Below are positions 15,001 through 33,256 of a DNA stretch of 64,000 nucleotides, piece by piece. A model generated the notes under the pieces. The model searched no databases and had not been told where the DNA came from. It saw only the letters and a program-made list of their open reading frames with translations. Position 1 is the first letter of the stretch, and each line of letters begins with the position of its first letter. Position numbers and translations under genes: made by a program. This DNA comes from Desulfuromonas sp. (lineage in GTDB: Bacteria; Desulfobacterota; Desulfuromonadia; Desulfuromonadales; BM501): the NCBI RefSeq assembly GCF_002868845.1, contig NZ_PKUB01000014.1, forward strand, positions 27,762 through 91,761, read 5' to 3'.

Positions 15001-15113
15001 TAGACATTACCCTTGCTAACAAAAATGCTAGCATTTACTTCACTAAAACACATATTGCCGACCTGCAAACCGTTATCCATTCTGACACTGAAGACTCTAA
15101 AATAGGTGTCTAA
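12015..15113 (+). CDS. 1032-aa sacsin/MORC-like GHKL ATPase with C-terminal HNH-like finger
   Basis: Start overlaps the upstream stop (ATGA). Bergerat-fold motifs: YELLQNAEDTGA (~12135-12161), EHNGRPF, DIGEGTK, IGRFGVGFKAVFAYS. C-terminus: CQVC...LHDD...NYIALCPNHAAMFQH (~14794-14945). Confidence 0.8.
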   Translation: MSIIDEIRGERVDLARVLKKHKGIRRIVEDLYPDSAHFIYELLQNAEDTGATETTFRLEENGLFFEHNGRPFEPPDIYAITDIGEGTKAADNDKIGRFGVGFKAVFAYSETPRIWSPTFSFEITELVLPAALETNSGVGDKTCFEFPFNNPKKAPQNAYEEIKEGLEELAETALLFLSDLESIRWQVRGKPAGEVLRIEHSLNHIEVLKQVDGKKTRASHFLRFCNPVDGLEKQNVTIAFELDFLPNITEFEAKKPLFMQLKIVQANPGRVAVFFPAEKEVSGLRFHLHAPFVPELSRASVKETPANEPLFFQLAALAAASLHSIRDLEMLTGDFLGVLPNQQDVLPKRYQPIREAIITEMINEPVTPTYSKTHSQAKHLVQAKLSLKSLLSEQDLEFLIDYGAVPPQWAITASQKNSFQDRFISALAITEWNIEQFVDLLEDRAYGEEWAEVDENFMDWIRKKPMEWHQHFYAMLYREQEAGEDFLDRLNDVKIVRLTDGSYGVGYKSYFVTDGMVPDEIFPCVDPEVYSSGKSKTQQSNSKKFLKSIGVREIGEVEKIESILDQRYSTENCFIQEKTYFTDLKRFIELVEKEPNRADLFTNKYIFRQKNHKWCQPRKLYLDKPFKNTGLSSYYKVIGEKGLRSALANSYQDSGIDIERIGRFAQAVRVQHKLLIFQQSTNKHTSKDVLRQDYYQPYVRWTSTAIDNDWMIQYLEELLVDPSENLSRLLWKTMVNAIPNILKAQFRPNQQYRIREQPSSLVLILRRMRWVPQGNEEFVTPENAYREKLPKGFPYDEDYEWLKALGFGAKIRQQTEEHIKKRAVAKDVLGTDDPDSIEDAKWFVGLSEEERQSFKAEYHSRNVSDLPEHEPQHPERRAKRLGEQAAGAPERTKEQRTRTVSIGQGEIKKEADQYLRQQYTDDNDRTICQVCKKELPFKLHDDSYYFEKVELLPELKKRYPQNYIALCPNHAAMFQHANGSIETIKTSLFESNNNHVDITLANKNASIYFTKTHIADLQTVIHSDTEDSKIGV

Positions 15114-17251: not shown

Positions 17252-20200
17252 GCGACCCCTCCGATTCGATCTTTGCCCTGGACAACACCACATCCATATC
17301 ACGTTGTTTATCAATCCAAACGCCCATCAGCGGGATGGCGAGCCTGTAATACTTGCCAGTGGATTCTCCAGCCCACTCAATCAATTCCAACTCTTGTAAA
17401 TATTCGAGATCGGAAATGATATCATCGTCACTCACCTCAATACCGGCATTCAGCAACCGCTCTTGGATGACCCCAAGACGCAGCGGGTCTGGTCCTGCAG
17501 CTTCTTTATGACAAAGGGCCAAAAGAAAGCGTCGCCGGTCTGATCCTGCGTAGTCCCATAGACTGGCAAAATGCTCATTGTCTTCGACCAACGACAAGCC
17601 TGAACGATTTACAATGTTCAGAGTAATTGAACGCGTTTTGAGCTGTGCGGACATTTCGAAAATACGATTGCACAAGCATTGCAGCAAAAATGGTTGGCCA
17701 GAAGTGAGATAAATGGCCCGTTTTATTGATTCTCGGGAATAAGTCAGTCGGTCTTTGACTGGTTCCGTAATCAGACGCTCTGCCGCTGATGCATCAAGGG
17801 AGGTGACGCCAATCCGAGTTCCGAGACCATATAGGGCTGACCAGTATTCTTCCCGTAATCGTTTTAGGCGCCGCGAGCCCGTGAGAATCGCCGAAAAGCG
17901 AGGATATGTCTGAACTAAATAACGAAAATTTTCTGGCACTTGCGAAGAAGTGACTCCATTTTCGATTCCTTCCTGGAGCTTATCGAACTCATCGAGCATC
18001 AATAATAAGCCCAGATTCTGTTCCTCCAACAAATCAAGTATGACATTGAGGTAGGATTCAAATTCGACAAATGGCTCCGCCGATATCCCCTCGCGGCAAG
18101 CTTTTGGTAGCGCTAGAGGTTTTTTGTCGGCAGGTAGCATTTCTCCGTTTGGCAAAGGAGTATCAAGGCCAAGTTCATAAGTAGTTTTTGCGATTGATCT
18201 CGCGATGCTTCTGAACACTTCAACGGTCGGCACTCCTACACCGTCTTCACTCCCCGCAGCCCCCTGCAAACTACTGTATACTCCGAGCCATCCTTCGACA
18301 CCATTTTTGCCGGAAAGGTGCGAAAGAATAGAGGTTTTCCCTGCGCGACGGTTTCCCTCCAAAAGAACGACGTTACCCGTCAACCTGATCTGCCGTCTAA
18401 TGCTTTCCAGTAGCTCATCACGTCCAAAAAAAACATCACTTCGTTTGGGTGTAATCGGCGCCCCGCAGACATACGGACTAGCCCCCATATCAGGAGCAGC
18501 TTCTCTTTCGACATAGTGCCTTGCCCCCAACTCAAACGGTAACTCAACCACGCCCTCTAGCTGTCGACCATCCATTGACACGTATTGAAGTTCGAAAAAC
18601 AGTGAGAATGATTCGCATTCATTGGGTACTTTTCCGCTAATCTGAACTGTCTTTTCAGATCTCTCAGCCAGGTAGCCAATTTCTTCACTGCCCCAATCTG
18701 GTGTTGTCTTGAAAGAAAAATTGCGTACGGGAAGAGGACTTTCGTTTGCAATTACAATTTCAATCGATTCATGGTCTCCACGGAAGAGTGCTAAGGTATC
18801 GCAACTTACGGTCACGTTGATATCTTCAACCAGCCAGGCAATCGCAGCCTGGATTCGACCATCAAAAAACTTAGACAATTCCCGTGCGCGGTTGTCCGCG
18901 GGCATGTGCCCCTTGATATCATTTAAAGACTCTTTGAGAGCCACATACGTTTGTTGAAGCAATGAAAAATATGTAGGCCCGAGAGGAACTCCATTTGTGC
19001 CATTCAATATTTGAGAAACTTTGTCCAAAGATTGGACCCAGACAGAGAGGGGATGTTCAGAAATGTTCCGGGAAGCTAAATTGCTTTTTTTATTGAAGGC
19101 ACTACCAAGAGCAACCAGAAGAGGCATAAGGTCATGGGGTTTCGATGAGGAATCTTCCTTGAGAAAAAAGAGTGCGTCATCTATCCACTTAACGATTGGG
19201 TCCCCTTCTTTTTCCAGCAATAGCTGGGAAAGGAAGGCCAGTGCATCCGTTTGGTGCTCAAGGTGACTTTCAGCGACGCGCTTCTGAATCTGCAGAGGGG
19301 GGAGAGGGACAAGGAGTTCATCGACAACCTTTTTTGAAAGGTGATTGATGACGGCCCCACGTGTTTTGCTTTCAAGCCAAGCGCGACACTCGGCACTGTT
19401 CAGGTATGCCGATAAGTAGTATGGATCGATCTTTCCTGGATCAGGACGAAGAATGAACAAACCACTTGCCGCAATAGCTCCTACTGCACCATTGCGTACC
19501 ATACCGACTTTGCCGATAGTCCCTGACTTTGAGACAAGAACATCTCCGGCTTTAAGCTTCCACTTCGGATCAATCTCTTGAGCAAAGTCAGCTTTTAGCC
19601 ATGAAGACCCTTTTGCAGCCTGTCCTCGGTGAATGTCCTTGATCCGGATGTATGGAAGGGATATGTCACTTCGCGGATTATCAGTCAGCTCTGACGACTT
19701 GATTGCGCGGCCAGAAACTATCAGGCAGCATTCACTCAGCTTGGTTATCTTTGTCTCAACTCGTAGGGACTCTAGAACACTTTCAAGGCCACTTTGGCCA
19801 CGGTTACGGGGCGAAAGATCCCACTCTGCTTCTTCAAGCTCATCAATGGAGGCATCCCAACAATTATTAGCAAGTTGTGGGCTACGAACTCGCCTTACCA
19901 GCTCATTCGCCATATCTTTACGAAGAATGGCTGGCTCTTTGCGCGGCCCTTCGTCAAAAAAGGACGCGGCATCGACCATCCGTACGCTTTTTGTCGGACC
20001 ACTACGGCGTAAAAGTAGAATGCTTGATCGGACCGATGTGTATGGAGCAAAAGCATTTGCGGGCAATTGGATTACAGCTTCAACGGCGTGTTGTTCAAGC
20101 AAAATACGACGCAGTTTCTGCTCTTGCCCTCCTCGAAAGAGAAATCCCTGAGGAACGACAATAACCGCCCGACCATCTGGGCGTAGTTGCGACAGGGAGT

Positions 20201-21119
20201 GTTGGATAAACAAGCCAGTGGCATCGTTTGTTTTTACCGGAAAATGATCGAGTCCGTTGGCGTTGACACGCATACCCCAAGGGGGATTTGCCAGCACCAA
20301 GTCGAACCCCTCCTTGTTGGGATTATTGGAGGCGGTCCGTTCCAAGCTATTGCCAAGTTCAAGCTTTGGATCGTCGATTCCAGCGAGAGCGAGTCGGGTC
20401 AGGCCGATAATAAATGCATCGGCATTCAGCTCGACGCCACTTATGGAAAGCGGTGGGCTAGCACTGCGGCTAAAGCCTTGTTCGTTTTTGGCAGTGACTT
20501 GTTCGCAGGCCGCTGTCAGATAGCCCGCCGAGCCGAAACATGGGTCGTAAATTCGCTCACCTGAGGAAGGTGCTCCCAGCAGCGCAACCAATTGGCTGAT
20601 CCATTTAGGGTCCAGACTTTCACGAACGCCACCCTGTGTTCCCTTGATTGATTGACTTAAAAACTCATCGAAAAGGCTGAGGAGCTTTAAACGATCTGCG
20701 GGAGTTTCAAAGGGGTGGTCAGCTAGCCAGTCAACCAGACGTCCCAAGAAACGCGGGTTAAACGAACCAAATAGCGCAACGGAACCGGCCATACGATGCA
20801 GATGAGTGGCCAGGGGCTTATGCCGAACATTTCCCAATGCTTCCAGCTTAGCGGGTAGCTGATGGGACAAAAGGTCGTGAAGCTTTTCAGGAGGATAGGA
20901 ATGCCAGGTTCGCCAATGCATTGCAGCGGGAAGAACTGGTTCATAATCGGTGTCATCAAAAGCCGCGATGGCTTCTTTCTCGGCTTCCTGAAAGTCGGCC
21001 CAACGCAAATATATCAGGGCTGCTAGCCTTGGGGCGATTTCATGCGACCCAAACTCAGAATTTGCCCTGAAGTTGCCGAGGACTTTCCAGAACTGAGATT
21101 GTGACGATACGTGAGGCAT
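17244..21119 (-). CDS. 1291-aa fusion: HsdM-like N6-adenine MTase + single HsdS-like TRD + linker + STAND-like ATPase + C-terminal wHTH-like
   Basis: MTase motif I YDPCFGSAGYL and motif IV NPPW (20277-20288). TRD: LVSKSGTIGKVGMV, ASGLFILRP, INHLSKKVVDELLVPLPPLQIQ. ATPase: FFGRDELLESI..LLEGNRRAGKTSIL (Walker A 18333-18356), LLLMLDEFDKL, AILTGSRRL. The start lies 3 nt after the hsdS stop. Confidence 0.8.
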   Translation of the reverse strand: MPHVSSQSQFWKVLGNFRANSEFGSHEIAPRLAALIYLRWADFQEAEKEAIAAFDDTDYEPVLPAAMHWRTWHSYPPEKLHDLLSHQLPAKLEALGNVRHKPLATHLHRMAGSVALFGSFNPRFLGRLVDWLADHPFETPADRLKLLSLFDEFLSQSIKGTQGGVRESLDPKWISQLVALLGAPSSGERIYDPCFGSAGYLTAACEQVTAKNEQGFSRSASPPLSISGVELNADAFIIGLTRLALAGIDDPKLELGNSLERTASNNPNKEGFDLVLANPPWGMRVNANGLDHFPVKTNDATGLFIQHSLSQLRPDGRAVIVVPQGFLFRGGQEQKLRRILLEQHAVEAVIQLPANAFAPYTSVRSSILLLRRSGPTKSVRMVDAASFFDEGPRKEPAILRKDMANELVRRVRSPQLANNCWDASIDELEEAEWDLSPRNRGQSGLESVLESLRVETKITKLSECCLIVSGRAIKSSELTDNPRSDISLPYIRIKDIHRGQAAKGSSWLKADFAQEIDPKWKLKAGDVLVSKSGTIGKVGMVRNGAVGAIAASGLFILRPDPGKIDPYYLSAYLNSAECRAWLESKTRGAVINHLSKKVVDELLVPLPPLQIQKRVAESHLEHQTDALAFLSQLLLEKEGDPIVKWIDDALFFLKEDSSSKPHDLMPLLVALGSAFNKKSNLASRNISEHPLSVWVQSLDKVSQILNGTNGVPLGPTYFSLLQQTYVALKESLNDIKGHMPADNRARELSKFFDGRIQAAIAWLVEDINVTVSCDTLALFRGDHESIEIVIANESPLPVRNFSFKTTPDWGSEEIGYLAERSEKTVQISGKVPNECESFSLFFELQYVSMDGRQLEGVVELPFELGARHYVEREAAPDMGASPYVCGAPITPKRSDVFFGRDELLESIRRQIRLTGNVVLLEGNRRAGKTSILSHLSGKNGVEGWLGVYSSLQGAAGSEDGVGVPTVEVFRSIARSIAKTTYELGLDTPLPNGEMLPADKKPLALPKACREGISAEPFVEFESYLNVILDLLEEQNLGLLLMLDEFDKLQEGIENGVTSSQVPENFRYLVQTYPRFSAILTGSRRLKRLREEYWSALYGLGTRIGVTSLDASAAERLITEPVKDRLTYSRESIKRAIYLTSGQPFLLQCLCNRIFEMSAQLKTRSITLNIVNRSGLSLVEDNEHFASLWDYAGSDRRRFLLALCHKEAAGPDPLRLGVIQERLLNAGIEVSDDDIISDLEYLQELELIEWAGESTGKYYRLAIPLMGVWIDKQRDMDVVLSRAKIESEGSHD

Positions 21120-21122
21120 GGG

Positions 21123-22301
21123 CTACAGCTCTCCGGCGAAGGCTTTGCGGAGGATTGCTTCTTGAAGGCCCGCCATAGCCGGTCCTTGTTTTACTATCTC
21201 ATCTTGGAGTTGAATGGCCAAGGGGAGAAATTGCTCCTTGATATTTATCATCTCCTGTTGGACTTCGAGGCATGGCAGTGGAAGTAAGGTTGATAGCAAA
21301 TCCGACTGGTTTATACTCGACTGCCCAATCGCATGCTTGGCCCGCCCCCTTAGGTCATGAAGGAATTGCGGACTATTCATGAGCCATGAGAGAAATCGAC
21401 CATCAGCCTTCTTGCTATCAATACGCAGACGAATAATCATTGCTTCATTAACGGCAGGCTCGGTTAAGTCATGAACGAGTGCCGACTTTCCTACTAGCTC
21501 CCGGCTATTGACTCTAGAGACGATTATGTCCCCATTTAGAACGGCAAAATCGGACGTTTCCTTTTCAGTTGTCTCTAGCCTTTCGGATCGAGAAATGTCC
21601 ATTTCACCATCCCGGATGTTAAACATCCGCAAAAGCAAAGTGCCTGAACCATGGAACTTTTTGGGTTTATACAGTCCATTCTTTGCCGACCTTACGGCTT
21701 CTCCGAGTGGAGTCATGGCAAATGCGGATGAGCATTCATTCCATAGATCATATTTACTGGCCACTGGCAGCACTTTACTTTCAGCAGTCAAGTCCTTATA
21801 AAGCCCTTGAACTTCGTCCACCCGCTCCATCACCCCCTTGATGCGGGCAACAATACGAACTTGATCATCTATTGGCGGGCATGGCACTAAAATCTTTTTC
21901 AACTCTTTTTGATTCAGCTTTTTTAGCGTTGAACCTTTAATCATGTGGCGAATATCTTGAAAAGCAACTGAATAATTCAGCCAATCAACGTTCATATTGC
22001 TCAAGGGTCGCAAAACATGTGCATGGTTATTCACCCATGACTTTCCAGAAATGCGGTATGAAATCGGACGAACTGGATCGTTGAAAAAGCCGCCATCCTC
22101 GGCAACCAGGACAAGGTCTTCATTAAATATCCACTCGTCGATTGTTCCAACCTGGCCGTTTGCTCCGTAATACGGTATATCTCCCTGTCGATTACGGCGT
22201 TCATCGTTATTGATTGGACGACGCAATCGATCTAGAACCTCGACGCATTCGCCGAGTGGTTTAAGTTCAAAGCTAGAAACCTCATTACTCATAGTGAACA
22301 T
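21123..22301 (-). CDS. hsdS: type I R-M specificity subunit (two TRDs)
   Basis: Two Methylase_S-like halves (IPYYGANGQVGTIDEW... and ...IVSRVNSRELVGKSALV) with conserved spacers. Starts 2 nt after the hsdM stop. Confidence 0.85.
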   Translation of the reverse strand: MFTMSNEVSSFELKPLGECVEVLDRLRRPINNDERRNRQGDIPYYGANGQVGTIDEWIFNEDLVLVAEDGGFFNDPVRPISYRISGKSWVNNHAHVLRPLSNMNVDWLNYSVAFQDIRHMIKGSTLKKLNQKELKKILVPCPPIDDQVRIVARIKGVMERVDEVQGLYKDLTAESKVLPVASKYDLWNECSSAFAMTPLGEAVRSAKNGLYKPKKFHGSGTLLLRMFNIRDGEMDISRSERLETTEKETSDFAVLNGDIIVSRVNSRELVGKSALVHDLTEPAVNEAMIIRLRIDSKKADGRFLSWLMNSPQFLHDLRGRAKHAIGQSSINQSDLLSTLLPLPCLEVQQEMINIKEQFLPLAIQLQDEIVKQGPAMAGLQEAILRKAFAGEL

Positions 22302-22303
22302 TT

Positions 22304-23782
22304 TCAGTCCTCAAGAATCGCTTCGAGTTCGCCGAGCAAATCCATAATCCGTTCCTCTTTCGCCTTAATTGACTGCACCAGCTCCAAAGCGGGACGGTGC
22401 TCATAGTCGTCCTTGCGATTTGGATTTTTTGCTGTAAGATCGTAGCCCCGCTCGGCAATATCTTCGATTGAAACAATCCAAGAATTTTCGCCCTCGATAT
22501 ACTCACCCCACTTGTCCAAGAAATCCGGAAACTGATTGCCTTCAATCGGTTTTCTGGTTTGCTTTAACTCAAAACCATCGTTAGTCAGTTCGTAAAACCA
22601 GACATTCTTTGTTGCCATCTCCCCACTAGGATCGGTTTTAGGGCGATCAAAGAAAATGATATTGGTTTTAACGCCCGTATAGGGTAAAAAACAGCCCGCC
22701 GGAAGCGACAGAACGGTATGGACGTTGAAACGTTCGAGCAGTTCCTGCCGCACCTTCTGGTCGGGGCCGCCTCGGAACAGCACACCTTCTGGAATCACCA
22801 CCGCAGCACGCCCGCTTTTAGCGAGATTGGCCATAATGTGCTGAACAAACAAGCACTCGGTGGCGCTCGACTTCACTCGGAAGTTGGTTTGCAGCGACTG
22901 AGCCATCTTGCCACCATAGGGAGGATTGGACAGGATAACGTCGTACTTGTCCTTTTCGCTCACGTTCTGGCTGTGGAGTTCAAGGGTGTCGCCAAGTTCC
23001 AGGTTAGCACCTTCGATTCCGTGGAGAATCATGTTCATAGTACCGAGCAGGTATGTCAGGGGTTTCAATTCGATGCCGTAGAAGGTCTGCTTCTGTAATT
23101 CATCGAGCTGCTTGCCGGACAGATTGCCGTGAGCGCGAATATAATCGGCCGCTTCGCCCAAAAAGCCTGCGGTGCCAAATCCGGGATCATAAACCCGCTC
23201 TCCAGCTTTAGGCTGAGTCACATGGACCATGGCACGGATGACGTGACGCTGAGTGTAGAATTCACCTGCATAACCGGCCGAGTCCGCGGCAACGCGCTTG
23301 AGGAGATCTTCATAGATTTCCGACAAAACGTGAACGTCGGTATCGTCGGCGAAGTGGAGCTTGTTGACCTGCCCTACAACGCGGGCAAAGGTGACCCCCT
23401 GACGACAGTAGTTACGGACATTGTCAAAAATGCGCCGGAACCGCTGGGCCAGCAGGTCATCCCCCAATCCTTTTTTGGGGTCGGGGCTAGTCAGCTTGGT
23501 CCAGAGCTTACCCTGAACGAACTCCAGCATGTCATCCGGGTTACGCTTGGTCCATTCCGGCCAAGCAAATTCGCCACTAAGACGCCTCTCGTAGCAGCCA
23601 TCATCGAAGGCCGCTTCTTCTTCGCGGCGTGACTCGGCCTCATCGAAAGCTTTGAGAAAGAAAAGCCAGGCGAGCTGCTCGACATAATTGCGGGCGTCAA
23701 CTCCGGCAACGTTAAGTTCGTCGCAGGCGTTTTTGACGATTTGTTGAACTTCTTGACGACGGTTATCGATTATTTTGTTCAT
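22304..23782 (-). CDS. hsdM: type I R-M N6-adenine DNA methyltransferase subunit
   Basis: HsdM N-terminal region (YVEQLAWLFFLKAF). Motif I DPGFGTAGFL, motif IV NPPYGG. Confidence 0.9.
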   Translation of the reverse strand: MNKIIDNRRQEVQQIVKNACDELNVAGVDARNYVEQLAWLFFLKAFDEAESRREEEAAFDDGCYERRLSGEFAWPEWTKRNPDDMLEFVQGKLWTKLTSPDPKKGLGDDLLAQRFRRIFDNVRNYCRQGVTFARVVGQVNKLHFADDTDVHVLSEIYEDLLKRVAADSAGYAGEFYTQRHVIRAMVHVTQPKAGERVYDPGFGTAGFLGEAADYIRAHGNLSGKQLDELQKQTFYGIELKPLTYLLGTMNMILHGIEGANLELGDTLELHSQNVSEKDKYDVILSNPPYGGKMAQSLQTNFRVKSSATECLFVQHIMANLAKSGRAAVVIPEGVLFRGGPDQKVRQELLERFNVHTVLSLPAGCFLPYTGVKTNIIFFDRPKTDPSGEMATKNVWFYELTNDGFELKQTRKPIEGNQFPDFLDKWGEYIEGENSWIVSIEDIAERGYDLTAKNPNRKDDYEHRPALELVQSIKAKEERIMDLLGELEAILED

Positions 23783-23796
23783 TTGGGTTCTTATCC

Positions 23797-26103
23797 TTAA
23801 ACTGTCATTGAAACGTAAAGGTGTTTTTTGACGGCTTCCAGGTCAGCTTTAAGCTGAGGCGCCCCGCCATATTTGGCTGTGAGGTTTTGAAAGCTGCCGA
23901 ACTGCTCGGCGAACTGCGGGGCACCATAGGTGCGGGCTTTCTCAAGGTCATCGATTCCGTACAAACCATAGTGGTCGAGAGCGGTCTGCCAAAAATTATA
24001 TTTCAGGTGGTTCCCGTCAAACCGGTCGGCATCGCGACCAGGAACGACGATGCCAAGTTCCGAGTCCAGCCATTGAATGTCTTCATCCCAGATACGATCC
24101 ACCCGCTGATGGCGGGTCGGAACCCGCACCAGATCGAAGCCAATTTTAGCGAGGATGTCGACATCGTCAGTGTTCGGCAGATCAAGGTAGTGGCGGAAAG
24201 CCGAGGGGTAAATGTCATGATCGCGCAATTCTTCTCGCAGGTCCTGACGGCCATTTTTATCAATCCAGATACCAAGCAGTTCATCGAGATTCTTGGTGGT
24301 GATGCTCTGAATGAACTCACGGGATTGATCGGTATATTCCTCAAATGGGATCTTGCTTCCATCCGCCAGACAGACATAGCGGTTGGTATCCGAGATAATG
24401 ACCGAGATCCCCTCACCGACAAGTTTGGTTTCTGGCTGTTTCGTCGTCTTCTTCGGCTTGGATGGCTTTTTGGGCTTCTGCTGATTGGCGGGATGTCCAT
24501 CAAATTCGGCATCTTCAAGCAGGCTGGCTCCTGAATAGTCAAAGATCGTAAAGTAGCGCTTGTTGATGTCTTCACACAGGCGTGTTCCGCGCCCCTTCAT
24601 CTGCTTGTAAAGGATGGCACTGCGCAACGGCCGGACGAAAACCACATTTTTCACGTCTGGGGCATCGAAGCCGGTGGTCAACAGGTCAACGGTAACGGCC
24701 ACTCGTGGCTTGCTTGGCCCAACGATGGCAAAGTTGCGTTCTAGTTGATGGCTGTTGCGCTCGGCACGGGTAATGCGTGCAGCGAAATCCGGATCTCCGG
24801 AAAGGCGACGAAGCTCGGCAGCCATGAAGGCGGCATGTGTATCGTCCACGCAAAAGACAATGGTTTTTTCATCGCGCAAACCGTATTTACCCAGGGTTTC
24901 CCACAGGTCACTGGCTATGGCTTTGGTACGATCCGGCATGCGGATTTCGCGCTCAAAATTCTGGGTTTTGTAGTGCTTCCCATCAGGACCGACGAATCCT
25001 TCTTCATCGACATTGGTGATGCGCTCTTCAAGCAGGTAGGGAACTAAAAAACCATCCTCTACGGCTTGTTTGAGGCTGTAGGTATAGATCGGATCACCGA
25101 AATAGTGATAGGTATCGCGACGCTGCTCTTCACTGGAGAGTTCGCGCTTAACCTCTTCAAGTTCTCGTGGCGTAGCGGTAAGGCCGAGCTGGAGAGCACT
25201 CTCGAAGTGCTCAAAAACACCGAACCAGTCGCCGAAGCCGGAGCGATGGCATTCGTCGATAACGACCAGATCAAAAAAATCGGGATCATAGTGCTCATAG
25301 ACCTTCTTGCCATCCAGTTCTTCATCAAGAGTCTGGTAGTTGGCAAAAAAGATCTTGCCCACCAAGTGGTTGCCTTTGGCGACAGTTTCTTTATCGATGG
25401 CTACACGCTCAGATGCACCAAATGCCTGAAAAGCTCTGAATGCCTGGCCCTTAAGGCTGTTGCGGTCGGTCAGAAACAATACATGCTGCTTGGGCAGAGC
25501 ATCGCCATTCATCATCTTCCAGATTAGCTGGAACACGGTGAAGGTTTTGCCGGTGCCGGTGGCCATCAGAAGTAAGGCTCTGTCGTCTCCCTGAGCAAAA
25601 CTCCAGAGTGCTTTTGAGATAGCCATTTCCTGGTAGGGGCGTACATTTTTACGGGTAACCTGATCGACGTGATAGCCGGCTGTGAAGGTTTCGCCCCAGC
25701 GGTCCCAATCGACCTCTACACCCAATCGCCTGATAATGTCTTCGGGACTGGGTGGAGCAGAAAATGTCTCGAAATCACCGGAGTCATTATCGGTAAGAAT
25801 CCAATCCGCACCGTTACTGGCAAGGGAAAAGCGGATCATCAAGCGCCGTGCATACCGAGACGCCTGCTGCATACCATCGGCAGCGGACTCAGTTTCGGCC
25901 TTGGCCTCCAATATTGCCAGCGGAATGCCGCGGTGACGGAGCAGGTAATCAGCAATGATCGCCTGCGACTCATCGTACATGCTCTCGCCGGTAATATTAA
26001 CCCGTCCTGGGCCTATGTGGAGCTGTTCTTCCCAGTCCCACCCGACTCGGGTCAGGACGGGTTCAATCAGATCCTTACAAGTTGTCCGTTCATTTCTTGC
26101 CAT
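23797..26103 (-). CDS. hsdR: type I restriction enzyme R subunit (EcoEI-like length class)
   Basis: N-terminus NERTTCKDLIEPVLTRVGW. Nuclease region ADYLL..LAILEAKA. Helicase motifs LLLMATGTGKT and VVIDECHRS. I chose ATG 26103 (8 nt from GAGGG); ATG 26109 is the alternative. The track start at 26157 would overlap the upstream gene. Confidence 0.9.
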   Translation of the reverse strand: MARNERTTCKDLIEPVLTRVGWDWEEQLHIGPGRVNITGESMYDESQAIIADYLLRHRGIPLAILEAKAETESAADGMQQASRYARRLMIRFSLASNGADWILTDNDSGDFETFSAPPSPEDIIRRLGVEVDWDRWGETFTAGYHVDQVTRKNVRPYQEMAISKALWSFAQGDDRALLLMATGTGKTFTVFQLIWKMMNGDALPKQHVLFLTDRNSLKGQAFRAFQAFGASERVAIDKETVAKGNHLVGKIFFANYQTLDEELDGKKVYEHYDPDFFDLVVIDECHRSGFGDWFGVFEHFESALQLGLTATPRELEEVKRELSSEEQRRDTYHYFGDPIYTYSLKQAVEDGFLVPYLLEERITNVDEEGFVGPDGKHYKTQNFEREIRMPDRTKAIASDLWETLGKYGLRDEKTIVFCVDDTHAAFMAAELRRLSGDPDFAARITRAERNSHQLERNFAIVGPSKPRVAVTVDLLTTGFDAPDVKNVVFVRPLRSAILYKQMKGRGTRLCEDINKRYFTIFDYSGASLLEDAEFDGHPANQQKPKKPSKPKKTTKQPETKLVGEGISVIISDTNRYVCLADGSKIPFEEYTDQSREFIQSITTKNLDELLGIWIDKNGRQDLREELRDHDIYPSAFRHYLDLPNTDDVDILAKIGFDLVRVPTRHQRVDRIWDEDIQWLDSELGIVVPGRDADRFDGNHLKYNFWQTALDHYGLYGIDDLEKARTYGAPQFAEQFGSFQNLTAKYGGAPQLKADLEAVKKHLYVSMTV

Positions 26104-26133
26104 TCGCATTTCCCTCTCTTGCAGACCCTTTTG

Positions 26134-26149
26134 AGCAACGGCTGTGCCA
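26134..26149 (-). promoter_or_regulatory. sigma-54 (-24/-12) promoter in front of hsdR
   Basis: The minus strand reads tTGGCACagccgTTGCTc (TGGCAC 26149-26144, TTGCT 26138-34), matching TGGCAC-N5-TTGCW. It begins 2 nt after the activator's stop codon and lies ~25-30 nt before the hsdR ATG. Confidence 0.7.
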
Positions 26150-26150
26150 A

Positions 26151-27659
26151 TCAACAATCAAGACCATATTTTTCGATCCAATTGTTGAGGGTTTGATAGT
26201 TTTTGAGCCCCAGCAAGGTTGCGGCTTTGCTCTTATTGCCGCCCGACTCTTTTAGGGCTCTTTGGATGTAATGTGAAGACAAAAAAGCCTGTAATTCCTG
26301 AAGTTTGAACCCCTCCCCCAAAGGTTTTTGCAGCATATCAGCATTCTGTTTCTGAGGGCTAGGAAGAAGTGCTTGGCGAACATCTTCTTCTTTTATCGTT
26401 TTGCCCTGACACCAGACGCAGATGCGCATAATTGTGTTAAACATCTCCCTTGCGTTTCCGGGCCAACCATGCCGAATCATAATATTTCTTGCATTTACAG
26501 AAAATTTCTTATGACTGTAGTCTGGACCGTCAGACAACTTCTTGTTGACCTGCCCCAGGATTGCATCCAGAAGAAGGCTGAGATCTCCATGCCTCTCCCT
26601 GAGCGGTGGAAGCCCGAGCACAATAACGGCTAGTCGATAAAAAAGATCTTCACGAAATCGCCCTACAGCAATCTCCGACAGGAGACTGCGATTGGTAGCA
26701 CCAATTATCCTGACGTCAATCGACCTCTCTTGCCCATCCCCAAGCCGCCTCAACATGCCGTCATTCAATACTCGAAGAATCTTCACCTGCGCATCAAGTG
26801 GCATTTCGCCTATTTCGTCCAGAAAAAGCGTGCCCCCGTTGGCCTGCTCAAAGTAACCAGCATGATCCCGGTGGGCCCCAGTAAAAGCCCCTTTCTTATG
26901 CCCAAAAAACTCTGACTCAAAAAGGTCTCGGGGGATCGCGCCGCAGTTGACTGCCACAAAACTCCCTGCAACGCGAGGACTCTCGTTGTGGATTGCCCTC
27001 GCGAAAAGCTCTTTTCCCGTCCCCGTTTCACCTTCAATCAGAACAGGAACATCTCTTCTTGCAGCCAACCTGGCCCGACTGACGATATCCTTCATATCGG
27101 CACACTGGTGAACAATGGCTTCAAAGGCTGGGCTTTCTGGCGGGAACCCCTCACTCAGTTGAACAAGGCGACTGTCAGCCCCCCTCGCCAAGTCCGGAAT
27201 AAACTCAGTAAAAATATTGAAAGGCATTTCGACCTGCTCCAGTCCACGCATGACCGAGGTCTGAATAAGCTCGGCGCCAGGAAAGGGGCCCTTGGCCAGG
27301 ATGATCCACGCCGCAGACATGGCTGGAGTCCCTGGACTCAGATGGAACACGGGCGTGCTCTTCTGCCGACTGGCCTTAAGTATCTTTTCAACATGGGCCT
27401 TTGCGGCGACGTAGATCGCCCCAAAATCAATCGGACTGGACAGTGTGACCGGGGTCACCAATATATCGCTCTGACATTTCCCCTTAAGCCATTCAACATA
27501 ACCATCTACATCTCGATCGGGTCCGTAGTTGTTCAACAAGGCGATTTCATGAAAATGCTCTGCGATAGCTGCGCCCGCTATGGGCCCAAGCCCCTCGCCG
27601 ACACCTCTCGCAGCATCAAAATCATGCCCCCCAATCCACGCAAACATAACTCTAGACAT
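26151..27659 (-). CDS. RtcR-like sigma-54-dependent transcriptional activator (CARF-like N-terminal domain + AAA+ + Fis-type HTH)
   Basis: N-terminus FAWIGGHDFDAARG ... VFHLSPGTPAMSAAWIILA parallels E. coli RtcR FGFVGTVLDYAGRG ... IHITTGTHVAQICWFLL. AAA+ domain: LIEGETGTGKELFA, GHKKGAFTGA (GAFTGA), LFLDEIGEM, FREDLFYRL. C-terminal HTH: AATLLGLKNYQTLNNWIEKYGL. Confidence 0.8.
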   Translation of the reverse strand: MSRVMFAWIGGHDFDAARGVGEGLGPIAGAAIAEHFHEIALLNNYGPDRDVDGYVEWLKGKCQSDILVTPVTLSSPIDFGAIYVAAKAHVEKILKASRQKSTPVFHLSPGTPAMSAAWIILAKGPFPGAELIQTSVMRGLEQVEMPFNIFTEFIPDLARGADSRLVQLSEGFPPESPAFEAIVHQCADMKDIVSRARLAARRDVPVLIEGETGTGKELFARAIHNESPRVAGSFVAVNCGAIPRDLFESEFFGHKKGAFTGAHRDHAGYFEQANGGTLFLDEIGEMPLDAQVKILRVLNDGMLRRLGDGQERSIDVRIIGATNRSLLSEIAVGRFREDLFYRLAVIVLGLPPLRERHGDLSLLLDAILGQVNKKLSDGPDYSHKKFSVNARNIMIRHGWPGNAREMFNTIMRICVWCQGKTIKEEDVRQALLPSPQKQNADMLQKPLGEGFKLQELQAFLSSHYIQRALKESGGNKSKAATLLGLKNYQTLNNWIEKYGLDC

Positions 27660-27688
27660 AGATGATCCCTTCCGATGTTTGCAGCAAG

Positions 27689-27718
27689 TATAAATAAATT
27701 TACAATTTTATAAATAAA
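27689..27718. promoter_or_regulatory. two TATAAATAAA direct repeats 20 bp apart in the divergent control region (candidate UAS/IHF-type site)
   Basis: Copies at 27689-27698 and 27709-27718, ~70-100 bp upstream of the sigma-54 promoter at 27789. A binding function is not demonstrable from sequence. Confidence 0.2.
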
Positions 27719-27788
27719 ATTCCATACAGAAAACTCAAAAAACAACCACAAGCACACATTCGCATTCAATAACAGATGGTTACAGTTT

Positions 27789-27804
27789 TGGCATTATGAT
27801 TGCT
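27789..27804 (+). promoter_or_regulatory. sigma-54 (-24/-12) promoter in front of the DUF2130 gene
   Basis: TGGCATtatgaTTGCT with correct GG-N10-GC spacing. Lies ~105 nt upstream of ATG 27910 and is divergent from the RtcR-like activator gene. Confidence 0.7.
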
Positions 27805-27909
27805 AAACAGAAAAATACCTTCAACAGTTGGAGGGGGGGGACTGCCGGAACCGCTCTTGAGTCCCAGCAGTCAAAACAATAATCCATATTTTTCATAGAG
27901 GAGATTGCC

Positions 27910-29148
27910 ATGAACCAAAACCAGCAAACGATTGAATGTCCAAAGTGCCATAACCAATTCAATATTGAAGATGTCATTCAGAATCGGATGGAGGAAGAGA
28001 TTGCCCAGCGAATTGCGGTGGCCAAGTCCGAGATGGAGCAACAGGCCGCACAAGAGCGGGAAGCCCTGAACAAACAAGAAGAAGACCTCGCCCGACGGCA
28101 ACGAGAGCAGGAAAAACAGGTCCGGGCCAAAATAGCCGAACGCGAACATCTATTACGAAAAGAACTTAAGACCGAATTTCAAAACGAGAATGCGACCGCA
28201 CTGCAGACGCTTCAAGAGGAACTTAAAGAGCGAACGCAAAAAATTCAACAGCTCCAGGACAAAGAACTGGAACTTGAGAAGCTCAAACGCAAAGACCGAG
28301 AGCGCGAGAAAGAATATGAAATTCGCTTTGAACGCGAGAAAAACCACTTTGCACAGCAGATAGAAGAACAGATCCGCCTTCAGGAAGGTGAAAAAATCCA
28401 ATTCAAGCTGGCGGAAAAAGACGAGCAGTTGAATGTTTTACGCAAGCAGTTAGACGAAATGAAGCGTAAGGCCGAGCAGGGATCTATGCAGATCCAGGGT
28501 GAAGTCCAAGAACTGGCCATCGAGGAAACCCTGCGCAACCTGTTCCTTCTGGACAACATACAGGAAGTCCCCAAAGGCTGCACAGGCGCCGATTCGATCC
28601 ACACCGTCCAGGATCGCAACTGTGATCCGATTGGCAAAATCATCTACGAAAGCAAGCGCACCAAGGCCTTCCAAAAGAACTGGATCGAAAAGCTCAAACA
28701 GGACCAACAAAGTGTCGGCGCCGACATTGCCGTTCTTGTCACGGAAGTCCTACCTGAAGGAGTAGAACGAATTGGCGAGATTAATGGTGTTTGGATTTGT
28801 GACTACCCGAGCATGAAGGGTCTGGCACTAGCTCTTCGGAGCAGTATCTGCCGTGTTGGCGAGGCCCAGAAAGCCCAGACGAACAAGGGCGACAAGATGG
28901 AGATCCTCTATGGTTACCTGACCGGAACCGAATTCAAGATGCAGATTGAGGCCATTGTCGAGGGGTTCAGCAACATGCAAGAAGGCATCGCAAAAGAGCG
29001 TCGCGCCATGGAAAAAATCTGGAAGGAGCGCGAAAAGCAACTGGACAAGGTCCTCAACAATGCCATCGGCTTTTACGGATCGGTGAAAGGAATCGCAGGA
29101 AGTGCAGTACCAGTTCTTCCGCTTCTTGAACTGGCAGAGGAGCACTAA
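27910..29148 (+). CDS. DUF2130-family protein (N-terminal Zn-ribbon, long coiled coil, C-terminal nuclease-like domain)
   Basis: GAGGAG RBS. N-terminal IECPKCHNQF, then a Glu/Lys/Gln-rich coiled coil. C-terminus GADSIHTV..GKIIYESKRTKAFQKNWIEKLKQDQ..ADIAVLVTEVLP..GVWIC is typical of DUF2130. Confidence 0.7.
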   Translation: MNQNQQTIECPKCHNQFNIEDVIQNRMEEEIAQRIAVAKSEMEQQAAQEREALNKQEEDLARRQREQEKQVRAKIAEREHLLRKELKTEFQNENATALQTLQEELKERTQKIQQLQDKELELEKLKRKDREREKEYEIRFEREKNHFAQQIEEQIRLQEGEKIQFKLAEKDEQLNVLRKQLDEMKRKAEQGSMQIQGEVQELAIEETLRNLFLLDNIQEVPKGCTGADSIHTVQDRNCDPIGKIIYESKRTKAFQKNWIEKLKQDQQSVGADIAVLVTEVLPEGVERIGEINGVWICDYPSMKGLALALRSSICRVGEAQKAQTNKGDKMEILYGYLTGTEFKMQIEAIVEGFSNMQEGIAKERRAMEKIWKEREKQLDKVLNNAIGFYGSVKGIAGSAVPVLPLLELAEEH

Positions 29149-29456: not shown

Positions 29457-31236
29457 GAGTTTGTAGAAAAACCATCCCGGCAGAGGCCGTCTTATCCCTC
29501 CTCGGGAAAATTTGAAATTCACTGCGCGAAAACCACCTGTTCAACCCTGAGCACCTTATGGTTGATATCCCGCGAGTTTTTCCCGGGCGGTGCCCCTTTC
29601 AAGGCGCTTTTCGGCCCTTGCCTCCCCTTATGTCGCCCATCCGTATCGATGGATCTTGAAGATGTTGTGCAGCATCGTCATCAAGTTCCACTGACCGTTA
29701 ACCTTTGCCCTGCCCCGTAATGAAAAGCGCCTGAGGCCCAAGGTCTCGCGGATGTTGCCGAAGACCGGCTCGACGATTCCTAACCGCATGCTGTAGGTGT
29801 GGCGGCCCACGGCTGAATCGATCTTCTGCTTCATGCGCTCAATGGGTCCGGTCTTGCTCTTGGGCAGAGTGGCCAGCAGCACATTGACCTGCCGGGCGCC
29901 CTTCTGCTTCACCGAGCGCAGGCACTGGGACCGCAAGGGACAGTCATCGCAGTCGGCTTGTCGTCCCATAAACTGCATGAAGATGTGGTTGCCGATCTTG
30001 GCCCGTTCGCACTTGAGCCACATCGTCTTGCCCGCCGGGCAGGTACAGGTCTGCTCCTCGGTGTCGGCGTCAAAATCCTCGACGGTGAAACGCTTCTTCG
30101 GGGACTTCGGCTTGGCCGGCTCTTTGGCCTTGTGGCGATCCGCAGTCTGGAATCGAGGGTCGCGGGAACGGAAGGCATTGTCGGCGATGTAAGCGTCGAT
30201 CTTGTTCTCTTCGAGATGTTCCAGTGTCTTCTTGCTGTGATAGCCGCTATCGGCCAGCACCTTGGCCTCATCCAGCACGTCGTCTTCGCCGACGCGGTTG
30301 AGGTTCTCCCGCACCTCGTCGAGCATCGGCTCTAGCAGGCCGTGTTCCTGCCCCTGCCCGTAGGCCTCGGCAGCGACCACCACCTGATGCTTGCCATCGA
30401 CGGCAGCCACGCCGTTGTACCCCTGGATTACCCCGTGGCCGGTCTTCATCTTGGCGCTGTCGTTGTCGGTGATATTGCTCTTCACCGGCTTGCCGGAGAT
30501 GCCTGTGCGCTCATCGTTACAAGCCAGGAACTTTTTGATCTTGCCGCTGGCTTTGCGCAGTGTTGCGATCTGCTTCTCTTCACGCTGCCGGATCGAATCC
30601 TCCCGGGCGCCCTTGCGGTCTTCTTCCCGGTGCTTCTTCAGCATGTGGCCAACAGCCCGCTCGATCTTCGCGCTCTTCTTCTGCAACTCCTCTTTGGTTC
30701 CGCTCCATTCCTTGGAGGCGTTCGAGGGGAGCTTGCAGCCGTCAATGGCGAACATCTCCTTGCCGATCAGCCCCAAATTGTCGCAGACCATTAAAACCTG
30801 ATGGAAGAGTTGGGAAATCTCCTTGTGCGATGAGGAGATGAAATCGGCAATGGTGGTGAAGTGCGGTCGACTATCGGCGGAGATGGCCATGAAGACCACA
30901 TTCTCCTGGCACAACGCTTCGATCTTGCGACTGCTGCTGACGCCCCGGGAGTAGGCCAGCAGAACGATCTTGAGCAGAATCGCCGGATCGTAGGCCGGTC
31001 GCCCGTTGTCGTCATTGTTGAAGCGATGATGAAAGATAGTCAGGTCGAGTTCGTGATCGACCAGGTAGCTAACAGAGTGTTCAAAGGTGCCGGGCAGAAT
31101 CTGCTGATCGAATGCTACCGGAACCATGACCATTTGGTTGTAGTCGTAGTTTTTGAACTTGGGCATGTCGTGACCTCTCGTTTAGATCGAAAAACCACGA
31201 CGATAATAGCATTTTTAAGGGTTTTTCTACAGCCTC
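29457..31236 (-). mobile_element. IS1182-family insertion sequence (approximate ends)
   Basis: Single transposase ORF flanked by the inverted repeat GAGttTGTAGAAAAACC (29457-29473) / GGTTTTTCTACAgcCTC (31220-31236). The 12-bp core is perfect. Size is ~1.8 kb. Confidence 0.65.
29628..31166 (-). CDS. IS1182-family (IS5-related DDE) transposase
   Basis: N-terminal DUF772-type motif GRPAYDPAILLKIVLLAYSRGVSSSRKIE. The C-terminal DDE_Tnp region ends ...HNIFKIHRYG. Confidence 0.75.
   Translation of the reverse strand: MPKFKNYDYNQMVMVPVAFDQQILPGTFEHSVSYLVDHELDLTIFHHRFNNDDNGRPAYDPAILLKIVLLAYSRGVSSSRKIEALCQENVVFMAISADSRPHFTTIADFISSSHKEISQLFHQVLMVCDNLGLIGKEMFAIDGCKLPSNASKEWSGTKEELQKKSAKIERAVGHMLKKHREEDRKGAREDSIRQREEKQIATLRKASGKIKKFLACNDERTGISGKPVKSNITDNDSAKMKTGHGVIQGYNGVAAVDGKHQVVVAAEAYGQGQEHGLLEPMLDEVRENLNRVGEDDVLDEAKVLADSGYHSKKTLEHLEENKIDAYIADNAFRSRDPRFQTADRHKAKEPAKPKSPKKRFTVEDFDADTEEQTCTCPAGKTMWLKCERAKIGNHIFMQFMGRQADCDDCPLRSQCLRSVKQKGARQVNVLLATLPKSKTGPIERMKQKIDSAVGRHTYSMRLGIVEPVFGNIRETLGLRRFSLRGRAKVNGQWNLMTMLHNIFKIHRYGWAT

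Positions 31237-31426: not shown

Positions 31427-33256
<1,830 letters not shown>

Follow-up and report, generated by a model that had tools for sequence, protein, structure and literature searches.

The element that directly follows the activator stop codon, ahead of the hsdR restriction gene, is probably a genuine sigma-54 promoter, and it appears to be part of a compact, horizontally mobile cassette through which the restriction operon would be switched up on a signal. We put the probability of this reading, with the mechanism proposed below, at about three in four. The parts needed first are the following, with positions in the window (the whole stretch of 64,000 nucleotides that was analysed).

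26134-26149, minus strand: sigma-54 (-24/-12) promoter of the hsdR operon, TGGCACagccgTTGCT, predicted from an exact consensus match and conservation
26112-26118, minus strand: Shine-Dalgarno sequence GAGAGGG in the hsdR leader of ~12-20 nt
26151-27659, minus strand: CARF-AAA+-HTH enhancer-binding protein (bEBP) of 502 aa, RtcR-like (RtcR_PspF2), assigned with Pfam, PADLOC and AF2/Foldseek
23797-26103, minus strand: hsdR, EcoAI-like type I restriction subunit (Pfam HSDR_N, ResIII, EcoEI_R_C), with an alternative start at 26109
22304-23782, minus strand: hsdM (HsdM_N, N6_Mtase; PADLOC MTase_I, 8e-140)
21123-22301, minus strand: hsdS (Methylase_S in two stretches, i.e. two TRDs; PADLOC Specificity_I)
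17244-21119, minus strand: 1291-aa protein in which an N6-methyltransferase is joined to a single specificity (TRD) domain and, at the C-terminus, to an AAA_16/ATPase_2-like NTPase
15650-17314, minus strand: final gene of the operon, for a P-loop protein of 554 aa (weak AAA_16; its start is uncertain and overlaps the preceding gene)

The promoter element starts one base past the activator TGA (26153-26151), from which a single t separates its -24 part. Read directly on the minus strand, TGGCAC (26149-26144), agccg and TTGCT (26138-26134) are followed by caaaagggtctgcaaGAGAGGGaaATG (26109-26107), cga and ATG (26103-26101), and the sequence of promoter and gap is as first described. The GG (26148-26147) and GC (26136-26135) doublets lie one helical turn apart, with no mismatch to TGGCAC-N5-TTGCW. 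This is the only exact match on either strand of the window, where a mean of 0.02 is expected and 2 of 100 dinucleotide-preserving shuffles reach one match; the original prediction, that chance would produce such a site well under once per window, holds. Sites with up to two mismatches are at background level (31 in the window, 29.8 expected), so that only the exact site is distinctive on sequence alone.

From the end of TTGCT to the hsdR ATG, on the same strand, there are 24-30 nt (start at 26109 or 26103), and from the spacing the transcription start is predicted near 26123. The gap of 41 nt described earlier applies to a start at 26109. On identical metagenome contigs, hsdR is called at the second ATG, 26103 (768 aa), which makes the gap 47 nt; because of these gene calls and a better Shine-Dalgarno spacing, 26103 is the more likely start. 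The short leader with a ribosome binding site was indeed found, and it is unstructured (folding z +1.2). A consensus scan of the gap between the activator stop and hsdR detected no terminator-like and no sigma-70-like site, and a search of Rfam matched no known RNA element or attenuator there. The activator gene lies directly upstream on the same strand, in a conserved layout, which agrees with the claim that the site is correctly oriented beside a sigma-54 activator gene. Position, orientation and adjoining activator are all consistent with a functional sigma-54 promoter.

The activator belongs, over its full length, to the RtcR-like CARF-AAA+-HTH family. PADLOC profile PDLC01995 (RtcR_PspF2--CARF_AAA_HTH) aligned with residues 3-500 over positions 2-480 of its 481 (E 5.1e-187), Pfam returned Sigma54_activat (PF00158, 1.5e-67), AAA_lid_14 and HTH_8, and the translation contains an intact GAFTGA, Walker A (GETGTGKE) and Walker B (LFLDEIGE) motifs, and a C-terminal Fis-type HTH. 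A fold search was needed for the CARF assignment, because a sequence-only search of the PDB with this domain gave no match. With the AF2 model of residues 1-185 (pLDDT 81, pTM 0.75), Foldseek returned 32 PDB matches at E<=0.001, all of them CARF domains (Csm6 6tug, E 2.6e-7; also Can2, Cad1 and Cam1). Calling the protein a sigma-54 activator was therefore right as far as a bEBP goes, but too generic for an RtcR-like bEBP with a CARF sensor. It is not RtcR proper: NCBIfam NF038308 scored 313.9 bits against a cut-off of 650, aligned from residue 69 only, and the neighbours are hsdRMS and a DUF2130 gene, with no rtcA or rtcB nearby. No rpoN gene is present in the 64-kb window. The high-GC core of the window has a gene for a second, chromosomal bEBP (45389-46855), which argues that the host uses sigma-54.

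Downstream, hsdR, hsdM and hsdS form a type I restriction-modification (R-M) system in one operon. The operon, with intergenic gaps of 14, 2 and 3 nt, ends at ~15650, the next gene being on the opposite strand. HsdR aligned over its full length with NCBIfam restrict_EcoAI (NF046051) at 516.6 bits, close below the cut-off of 550, and is best called EcoAI-like rather than a type IB member. Large fusions similar to the 1291-aa protein also follow hsdS in four related loci (L061, L064, L067 and L079), and one homologue of the 554-aa protein was found, in L028. A CoCoNuT superoperon was considered and rejected, as none of the five operon genes contains a McrBC-type domain.

The decisive evidence for the predicted promoter is its conservation. 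Related loci were collected by a scan of genome contigs with an alignment of 8 fragmentary protein-database matches to the CARF domain. They span Desulfuromonadales, Desulfobacterales, Chromatiales, Acidobacteriota, Planctomycetota and Spirochaetia, and 513 relatives were counted among GTDB species representatives. An exact site begins at an offset of 3-7 nt from the first base of the activator stop in 24 of 69 related loci, where 0.005 are expected, and a site with at most one mismatch at the same offset in 42 of 69 (0.013 expected). The corresponding binomial P is <1e-80, a value that overstates independence, the loci being kin by descent and horizontal transfer. Five further loci have TGGCAC-N5-TTGA/TTGT in that position. 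The same layout occurs on 3 plasmids outside the 69-locus set, and the promoter is present in plasmid loci L086 and L087. HsdR is the first gene downstream in 36 loci, window included (about half); in the remaining loci this place is taken by other defence-type families. As a side observation, the contig scan was far more productive than the initial protein-database search, in which the CARF query had returned only the 8 fragmentary matches.

Two clusters of a tandem dyad motif, one on each side of the activator start codon, and a second sigma-54-type site complete the map:

27688-27724, minus strand: tandem dyads TGTAAATTTATTTATAC and TGGAATTTTATTTATAA upstream of the activator gene, a direct repeat (Gibbs motif, PWM)
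27687-27714, minus strand: sigma-70-like promoter of the activator gene, TTTATA-16-TATACT, a pattern match from a consensus scan
26477-26514, minus strand: two tandem dyads tCATAAGAAATTTTCTGt and aTGCAAGAAATATTATGa, 20 nt apart, inside the activator ORF (codons 383-395, HKKFSVNARNIM)
27789-27804, plus strand: a further site of sigma-54 type, TGGCATtatgaTTGCT, that points away from the activator gene; the DUF2130 start lies 106 nt downstream of it
27910-29148, plus strand: DUF2130 protein of 412 aa with a coiled-coil N-terminus, the putative divergent target (Pfam DUF2130, 2.9e-69)

In most of the 76 loci whose upstream flank was long enough, Gibbs sampling placed the dyad motif (consensus ~cAyAAGaaatTCTTGTa, tandem copies 20 nt apart) ahead of the activator gene. 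In the window these dyads overlap the sigma-70-like promoter of the activator, and -35/-10-like hexamers overlap them likewise in many related loci. The centres of the two copies lie ~100 and ~120 nt upstream of the predicted start of the divergent promoter, which is the classical distance of an upstream activating sequence (UAS). Divergent sites with at most one mismatch, 94-192 nt from the activator start, were found in 15 other loci (~0.4 expected from the background rate). Three related loci have a DUF2130 homologue upstream of the activator, and in one of these, L037, it is directly divergent; the divergent gene of L052 has a weak Pfam DUF2130 match only. The upstream dyads are thus candidates for two roles, a UAS for the divergent promoter and an operator for autoregulation. 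A 16-nt inverted repeat (26177-26192 / 27817-27832), considered as a site common to both promoters, was dropped because its chance count is near 1, it stands at unequal offsets from the two promoters and it does not correspond to the conserved motif.

A PWM was trained on the non-coding upstream sites. Its information content is low (~12 bits), and the window sites are an AT-rich variant. It has one other hot spot only, shared by 51 of 71 loci, between -380 and -340 relative to the stop and thus within the ORF. The two intragenic dyads of the window scored 16.1 and 15.6. When the window gene was resampled with synonymous codons, the dyad score reached 13.1 +/- 6.1, compared to 31.7 observed (p=0.002). 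The same procedure gave p<=0.01 in 60 of 71 loci, with a mean z of 3.8. A scan of codon choice along the whole gene in 56 non-redundant sequences produced a single peak, at residues 385-395 (TCT 50/55, GCA 52/56, CTT 41/44), with z of 13-17 compared to a gene-wide mean of 1.8. Where other codons are used for the same peptide, the locus has neither dyads nor stop-adjacent promoter, and the co-occurrence of the two is significant (56/4/3/7, OR 33, Fisher p=2.8e-5). The intragenic pair is under selection at the DNA level and co-occurs with the promoter. That it doubles as a sigma-70 promoter (TTTCTG-16-TATGAT in the window) seems less likely, as high-GC loci conserve the dyad but not the -10-like hexamer.

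Lying ~345-365 nt upstream of the -24 element, the intragenic pair is a candidate enhancer, or UAS, for the stop-adjacent promoter. In two loci, L014 and L033, the upstream dyads and a divergent promoter have been kept while internal dyads and downstream promoter are both lost, and we therefore assigned each dyad pair to its nearer promoter. In both clusters the dyads would be bound by the activator. The motif is not anchored to a characterised RtcR site, because the E. coli rtcR-rtcB intergenic region gave no match at >=10 bits. A search for a conserved IHF site between internal dyads and promoter gave no support (3 of 71 loci, 1 of 213 control segments).

Alternatively, the promoter may be real and dependent on sigma-54 and the bEBP while being activated from the upstream dyads, 1.55 kb off, or from other sites. 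The intragenic pair could then serve autoregulation, as a roadblock or in a repression loop with the upstream pair, and so limit both activator synthesis and read-through into hsdR. The distance speaks for this possibility: bEBP enhancers usually lie 80-200 nt from their promoter and ~350 bp is atypical. Repression is also the natural reading of a motif placed over the sigma-70-like promoter of the activator, two dyad pairs 1.15 kb apart could loop, and 4 loci have internal dyads and no recognisable stop-adjacent promoter. Such a role would not account for the co-occurrence of internal dyads and stop-adjacent promoter, nor for their joint loss in L014 and L033. Moreover, bEBP enhancers work at several hundred bp, and NtrC sites moved by kilobases still activate glnAp2. 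We consider this alternative unlikely, although it is the strongest of those weighed.

Under the preferred reading, in which the intragenic pair is an enhancer, the cassette would consist of the CARF-bEBP gene, the dyads over its own sigma-70-type promoter, the dyads within the ORF and the -24/-12 promoter flush with the stop. The activator would be made at a low level, probably autoregulated via the upstream dyads. As the stop codon is flush with the -24 element and no terminator lies between, transcription from the sigma-70-like promoter should read through into hsdR-hsdM-hsdS and provide a basal level of methylase and restriction enzyme. Such a basal route would be needed because hsdM and hsdS on an inducible promoter alone would be self-toxic; the basal level would serve self-methylation. 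Binding of a ligand to the CARF domain would let the AAA+ domain oligomerise on the dyads. The bound activator would then loop over ~350 bp to the sigma-54 holoenzyme at 26149-26134, and ATP hydrolysis would open the promoter, boosting hsdR, hsdM, hsdS and the two downstream NTPase genes. From the upstream dyads, bound activator would also turn on the divergent DUF2130 gene via the site at 27789-27804. The nature of the CARF ligand and the basal expression by read-through are both points that we infer.

The restriction operon is thus probably switched up on a signal, and not only constitutively made. The original prediction had gone further, holding the promoter to be silent without its activator and hence inducible. 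Sigma-54 control is supported by the present data, but "silent", or non-constitutive, is too strong, because the activator gene and hsdR have no terminator between them and some read-through is to be expected.

The same absence of a terminator, together with the position flush with the stop codon, would also suit a site that binds the sigma-54 holoenzyme and acts mainly as a brake, its closed complex blocking read-through. Sigma-54 closed complexes are long-lived, and regulatory, non-promoter sigma-54 sites have reportedly been proposed in Salmonella. A brake would, however, require conservation of neither the -12 element nor the orientation, whereas the orientation always matches the downstream operon, and in every locus the site adjoins the gene of a cognate activator whose GAFTGA and ATPase motifs are intact. 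We regard a mainly negative role as improbable. Finally, a functionless chance match, conceivable for a site with only ten specified bases that 2 of 100 window shuffles also produce, is effectively refuted by the 42 of 69 loci sharing its offset from the homologous stop (0.013 expected) and by its presence in independent plasmid loci.

A link between RtcR-like CARF regulators and R-M systems, with predicted sigma-54 control, has been drawn before (Makarova 2014, PMC4012209; Bell 2024 on CoCoNuT, PMC11090510). In the parts of these papers compared here, the systems are like the window in the regulator family, in the place of the CARF regulator 5' of a defence operon on the same strand, with type I HsdR/M/S among its products, and in the predicted logic, sigma-54-dependent activation on binding of a CARF ligand. 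They differ in that the argument there is one of gene neighbourhood, with an "upstream activating sequence" by analogy only, and the window operon, unlike the CoCoNuT systems of Bell 2024, has no McrBC or CoCoNuT genes. The same parts of the two papers report no promoter or enhancer sequence (the 2020 CARF classification lies outside this comparison). Sigma-54 control of R-M by this CARF family is not a new idea. The earlier remark that such control is unusual for R-M systems stands at the experimental level; as an idea, it had been predicted in 2014 and 2024. The present analysis adds three features that appear undescribed: a promoter flush with the stop, a second promoter in the divergent direction, and dyads embedded in the ORF. 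A literature search combining RpoN and hsdR returned strain genotypes only, and a 2025 survey of sigma-54 regulons did not mention restriction.

Among characterised systems, rtcR/rtcBA of E. coli and Salmonella has the same CARF, NtrC-type AAA+ and Fis-type HTH architecture, a sigma-54 promoter of the same class (E. coli TGGCACGACGGTTGCA) and, as in the window, a divergent sigma-54 promoter beside the regulator gene. It differs in that the main target in the window is a co-directional restriction system, and in that the E. coli intergenic region lacks the dyad motif. Removal of its N-terminal part reportedly renders RtcR constitutively active (Genschik 1998). The UAS of PspF overlap the pspF sigma-70 promoter and serve both negative autoregulation and activation of the divergent sigma-54 pspA promoter. 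The tandem sites of the window are placed alike, over the sigma-70-like promoter of the activator and ~100-120 nt from a divergent sigma-54 promoter; PspF, on the other hand, has no sensor domain and no second, intragenic pair of sites for a co-directional operon. Co-directional cascades from a bEBP gene to a sigma-54 promoter exist in flrA-flrBC and fleQ-fleSR, and NifA and FhlA have intragenic enhancers, so that an activator gene followed by a sigma-54 promoter and enhancers within coding sequence both have precedents. In the window, by contrast, the promoter lies 0-4 nt from the stop, the candidate enhancer is in the activator's own ORF, and the whole unit moves between phyla ahead of different defence operons. 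As for R-M systems, type II systems are regulated by C-proteins, and type I systems by constitutive hsd promoters and ClpXP-dependent restriction alleviation. The window shares with these the timing or limiting of restriction relative to methylation; we know of none that uses sigma-54, an enhancer-binding ATPase or a nucleotide- or RNA-sensing CARF domain.

Type I R-M systems are usually viewed as constitutive and controlled post-translationally, and to our knowledge few mechanisms are established by which infection switches on defence islands. This locus and its relatives provide a concrete cis-regulatory map, with a promoter, two operator/enhancer clusters and a sensor domain. A ten-year-old neighbourhood prediction, CARF-sigma-54 control of restriction, becomes a directly testable model, with relatives in cultured strains (Azotobacter chroococcum pAcX50d, a Pseudomonas luteola plasmid, Methylobacter marinus A45 and Geomonas oryzae). 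The ORF dyads, if they are an enhancer, would be a clean natural overlap of protein and regulatory code under strong selection. On balance we lean, with some reserve, towards a portable sense-and-induce cassette, its enhancer in activator codons 383-395 and its promoter fused to the stop, which would make recombined downstream defence operons inducible by an infection or RNA-damage signal. Its targets would include type I R-M, OLD/AAA_15-type ATPases, DUF4007 systems and kinase/phosphatase conflict systems, and the module might serve as a compact inducible expression unit. Should this be true, dual-use coding DNA would be widespread across the 513 relatives, and restriction inducible at the level of transcription would have, in this cassette, its first defined cis-regulatory logic.

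In the original prediction, a sigma-54 consensus match lay flush after the activator stop codon, directly in front of hsdR, and this was confirmed:

26151-27659, minus: sigma-54 activator, 502 aa, first gene of the operon
26153-26151, minus: activator stop TGA, then a single t before TGGCAC
26149-26144, minus: TGGCAC half of the sigma-54 element, then the spacer agccg
26138-26134, minus: TTGCT half of the element, then caaaagggtctgcaaGAGAGGGaaATGcgaATG

When both strands were searched, TGGCAC-N5-TTGCW matched once in 64 kb; dinucleotide-preserving shuffles of the window gave 0.02 exact matches on average, which bears out the claim that well under one was expected by chance. With up to 2 mismatches allowed, 31 sites were found for 29.8 expected, the chance level, and the window-only argument for a promoter rests on a single exact site, correctly placed. 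The 41-nt gap had been read correctly as sequence, but gene callers place the hsdR start at the second ATG (26103) on 3 identical metagenome contigs, which gives a gap of 47 nt and a better spaced Shine-Dalgarno. A scan of the gap revealed no terminator-like and no sigma-70-like site, no Rfam family matched it, and no folding was found in the hsdR leader.

Related loci were collected with a CARF-domain alignment as query, which gave 513 relatives among GTDB species representatives, of which 80 loci (L-numbers) were retained. These were aligned on the activator stop codon, and sites were counted when GG and GC were intact and the start lay 3-7 nt after the first base of the stop; expected counts came from the background rate within the loci themselves. 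A stop-adjacent site was present in 24/69 loci with 0 mismatches (0.005 expected), in 42/69 with at most 1 (0.013 expected) and in 45/69 with at most 2 (0.041 expected). The loci originate from Desulfuromonadales, Desulfobacterales, Chromatiales, Methylococcales, Acidobacteriota, Planctomycetota, Spirochaetia and others, and in the CARF domain they share only 40-60% identity with the window. P-values (<1e-80) are nominal because the loci are not independent samples; the positional signal is unmistakable despite this non-independence. The same behaviour was found in 3 plasmids outside the locus set, Azotobacter chroococcum pAcX50d, a Pseudomonas luteola plasmid and a Rhodoferax antarcticus plasmid. 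In 36 loci the first downstream gene encodes an HsdR homologue, and HsdM and HsdS usually come next; elsewhere the first place is taken by an AAA_15/AAA_21-DUF3696 ATPase, DUF4007, HATPase_c, TPR or PcfJ-like protein. Since the cargo differs between loci, the conserved unit is the regulator with its promoter. We conclude, with a probability of roughly 0.85, that the site functions as a sigma-54 promoter controlled by the activator next to it.

Five more loci (L017, L050, L064, L072, L074), forming one clade, carry TGGCAC-N5-TTGA/TTGT at the same spot (stop codon +3), with GA or GT in the -12 position instead of GC; the promoter variant of this clade may be weaker or tuned differently. On the Rhodoferax antarcticus plasmid (L085, 10480-10512 and downstream), the sigma-54 element TGGCACggatgGTGCT reaches back into the final codons of the activator ORF, an additional dyad lies immediately past the stop, and a VWA-PP2C phosphatase-protein kinase-AAA operon takes the place of R-M as cargo.

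The activator contains Sigma54_activat, AAA_lid_14 and HTH_8 domains, with GETGTGKE, LFLDEIGE and GAFTGA motifs intact. The AlphaFold model of its N-terminal domain (pLDDT 81) was compared with the PDB, and all 32 matches at E<=0.001 were CARF domains, led by Csm6 (E 2.6e-7), then Can2, Cad1 and Cam1. The PADLOC model RtcR_PspF2--CARF_AAA_HTH, which covers exactly this family, matched over the full length (E 5e-187). RtcR proper was ruled out: the protein scored 314 bits with the NCBIfam RtcR equivalog, whose cut-off is 650, and its neighbourhood lacks rtcBA. The island encodes no cyclase or oligoadenylate synthase.

Upstream of the activator gene, the following features were found:

27688-27724: upstream dyad pair, AT-rich variant, also direct repeat D11
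27789-27804, plus: one-mismatch sigma-54 site TGGCATtatgaTTGCT, divergent from the activator gene
27910-29148, plus: divergent gene, DUF2130 protein with coiled-coil N-terminus

The dyads emerged when the 110 nt before the activator genes were searched for motifs by Gibbs sampling, as two tandem imperfect dyads (unit ~cAyAAGaaatTCTTGTa) 20 nt apart in most loci. They overlap sigma-70-like hexamers (-35/-10) that belong to the activator gene; in the window, their distances to the predicted start of the divergent promoter are about 100 and 120 nt. The layout, in which overlap with the activator promoter is combined with a divergent sigma-54 promoter, is shared with PspF, where one site pair doubles as enhancer and auto-operator. 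The DUF2130 gene starts 106 nt downstream of the divergent site, and a comparable site 94-192 nt from the activator start occurs in 15 other loci, for ~0.4 expected; the DUF2130 gene seems to be a further target, which the activator would reach through the divergent site. Elsewhere the divergent gene encodes an ARPP-1-domain or PolB-exonuclease-like protein, and PADLOC has no model for any of the three. The window activator has a 28-nt leader with GGAAGGGA. In many high-GC loci (e.g. L022, L044, L060, L064, L074), a -10-like hexamer (TATCAT/TATCCT) ends 6-9 nt before the activator start and no Shine-Dalgarno precedes the gene, which suggests leaderless activator mRNAs.

A PWM trained on the non-coding upstream sites only was then run over the loci. 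It revealed, in 51/71 loci, one further hot spot, which lies inside the activator ORF and precedes the stop by 340-380 nt; this is again a pair 20 nt apart:

26477-26514, minus: internal dyads tCATAAGAAATTTTCTGt and aTGCAAGAAATATTATGa, PWM scores 16.1 and 15.6

A repeated peptide as the source of the pair was excluded, since, at a spacing of 20 nt, the two units fall in different codon phases. When synonymous codons were resampled 500 times from each gene's own usage, the tandem score exceeded the resamples at p<=0.01 in 60/71 loci (mean z 3.8; window 31.7 vs 13.1+-6.1, p=0.002). An unbiased codon-choice scan of the whole activator gene in 56 non-redundant sequences gave residues 385-395 as sole outlier block, with Ser TCT in 50/55 (z 17), Ala GCA in 52/56 (z 15), Arg AGA/AGG (z 13.5) and Leu CTT in 41/44 (z 12.8), for a gene-wide mean z of 1.8 (SD 2.0). 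These rare codons are retained even in high-GC genomes. In six loci (L014, L033, L038, L041, L059, L027), GC-rich codons specify the same peptide, and both the internal dyads and the stop-adjacent promoter are missing; L014 and L033 retain upstream dyads and a divergent promoter. Internal dyads and stop-adjacent promoter co-occur (56/4/3/7, odds ratio 33, p=2.8e-5). Selection at the DNA level on the intragenic dyads is thereby shown, together with their co-occurrence with the promoter, and we lean towards the view that they are its enhancer. No IHF site between them and the promoter is conserved across the related loci; a ~350-bp loop does not need one. Weaker dyad-like matches at 26277-26293 and 26316-26332 (minus; 10.8 and 10.7 bits, 140 and 179 nt before the stop), the former common to the window, L003 and L005, could be auxiliary activator sites in a Desulfuromonadales-like clade, or chance.

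The genes downstream of the activator form with it a tight minus-strand operon, towards which three large co-directional genes (4515-15113), which PADLOC matches to other candidate defence genes, converge:

23797-26103, minus: hsdR, EcoAI-like (NCBIfam 516.6 bits, slightly below the cut-off of 550)
22304-23782, minus: hsdM
21123-22301, minus: hsdS
17244-21119, minus: methyltransferase-TRD-NTPase fusion, 1291 aa, directly after hsdS
15650-17314, minus: P-loop protein, 554 aa
4515-8204, plus: PDC-S68 (PADLOC E=0)
8392-12018, plus: DrmD/BrxH-like SNF2 helicase
12015-15113, plus: TmtA-like sacsin/HATPase protein

The fusion combines an N6-adenine methyltransferase, a single TRD and a C-terminal AAA_16/ATPase_2-type NTPase. 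Comparable proteins of 750-1340 aa follow hsdS in L061, L064, L067 and L079, and may be a conserved accessory of such regulated type I systems. Within the hsdR 3' end, ~180 nt ahead of hsdM, there is a sigma-70-like match, TTGGCA-16-TATGGT (23965-23992, minus). It could serve hsdMS as a separate promoter, as in EcoKI; the window contains no more matches of this kind than shuffles do. From 1 to about 31200, GC is 44-55% (rising to 59% in the final ~1 kb) compared to 59-69% in the core. This region adjoins glmS (31427-33256, minus), with an IS element (DDE_Tnp_1_6, 29628-31166) between the defence genes and glmS; given the low GC and these neighbours, it is an acquired defence island, and its site downstream of glmS recalls Tn7-type attachment sites. 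The host probably uses sigma-54, since the high-GC core encodes a second bEBP:

45389-46855, minus: second bEBP, 488 aa, Sigma54_activat and HTH_8
45213-45228, minus: sigma-54-like site TGGCACgggtgTTGAA, -12 GA in place of GC, ~160 nt past the bEBP stop, before the next gene

We propose that the activator HTH would be bound to the dyads, and that ligand binding by CARF would release AAA+ oligomerisation, as in RtcR. The oligomer would then loop to the sigma-54 holoenzyme at 26149-26134 and open the promoter, with a predicted start near 26123; the upstream pair would repress the activator's own promoter and drive the DUF2130 gene. Expression of hsdR had been predicted to be inducible rather than constitutive. 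The -24 element follows the stop codon too closely for a terminator to fit in, so transcripts from the sigma-70-like promoter of the activator should run on into hsdRMS; in our reading, induction adds to a basal level, as opposed to an off/on switch. Self-methylation should require basal expression, such as read-through would give.

Makarova 2014 (PMC4012209) predicted sigma-54-dependent activators of downstream genes, sensing infection-derived ligands. Bell 2024 (PMC11090510) describes superoperons headed by an RtcR homologue, type I R-M included, with activation proposed via 'an upstream activating sequence', and gives no promoter or enhancer sequences. No experimental study of hsd expression under sigma-54 came up in a literature search. 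The sigma-54-controlled restriction operon is, in principle, an already published prediction for this family; the promoter itself, conserved beside the activator, now backs it. The papers compared do not mention the strict stop-codon-adjacent placement across phyla, the paired divergent promoter, or the tandem dyads that lie in the ORF under extreme synonymous constraint. Together, these three features define a portable sensor-enhancer-promoter cassette. The principle will not surprise specialists of defence or sigma-54; the value lies in the defined cis-elements and the candidate dual-coding enhancer.
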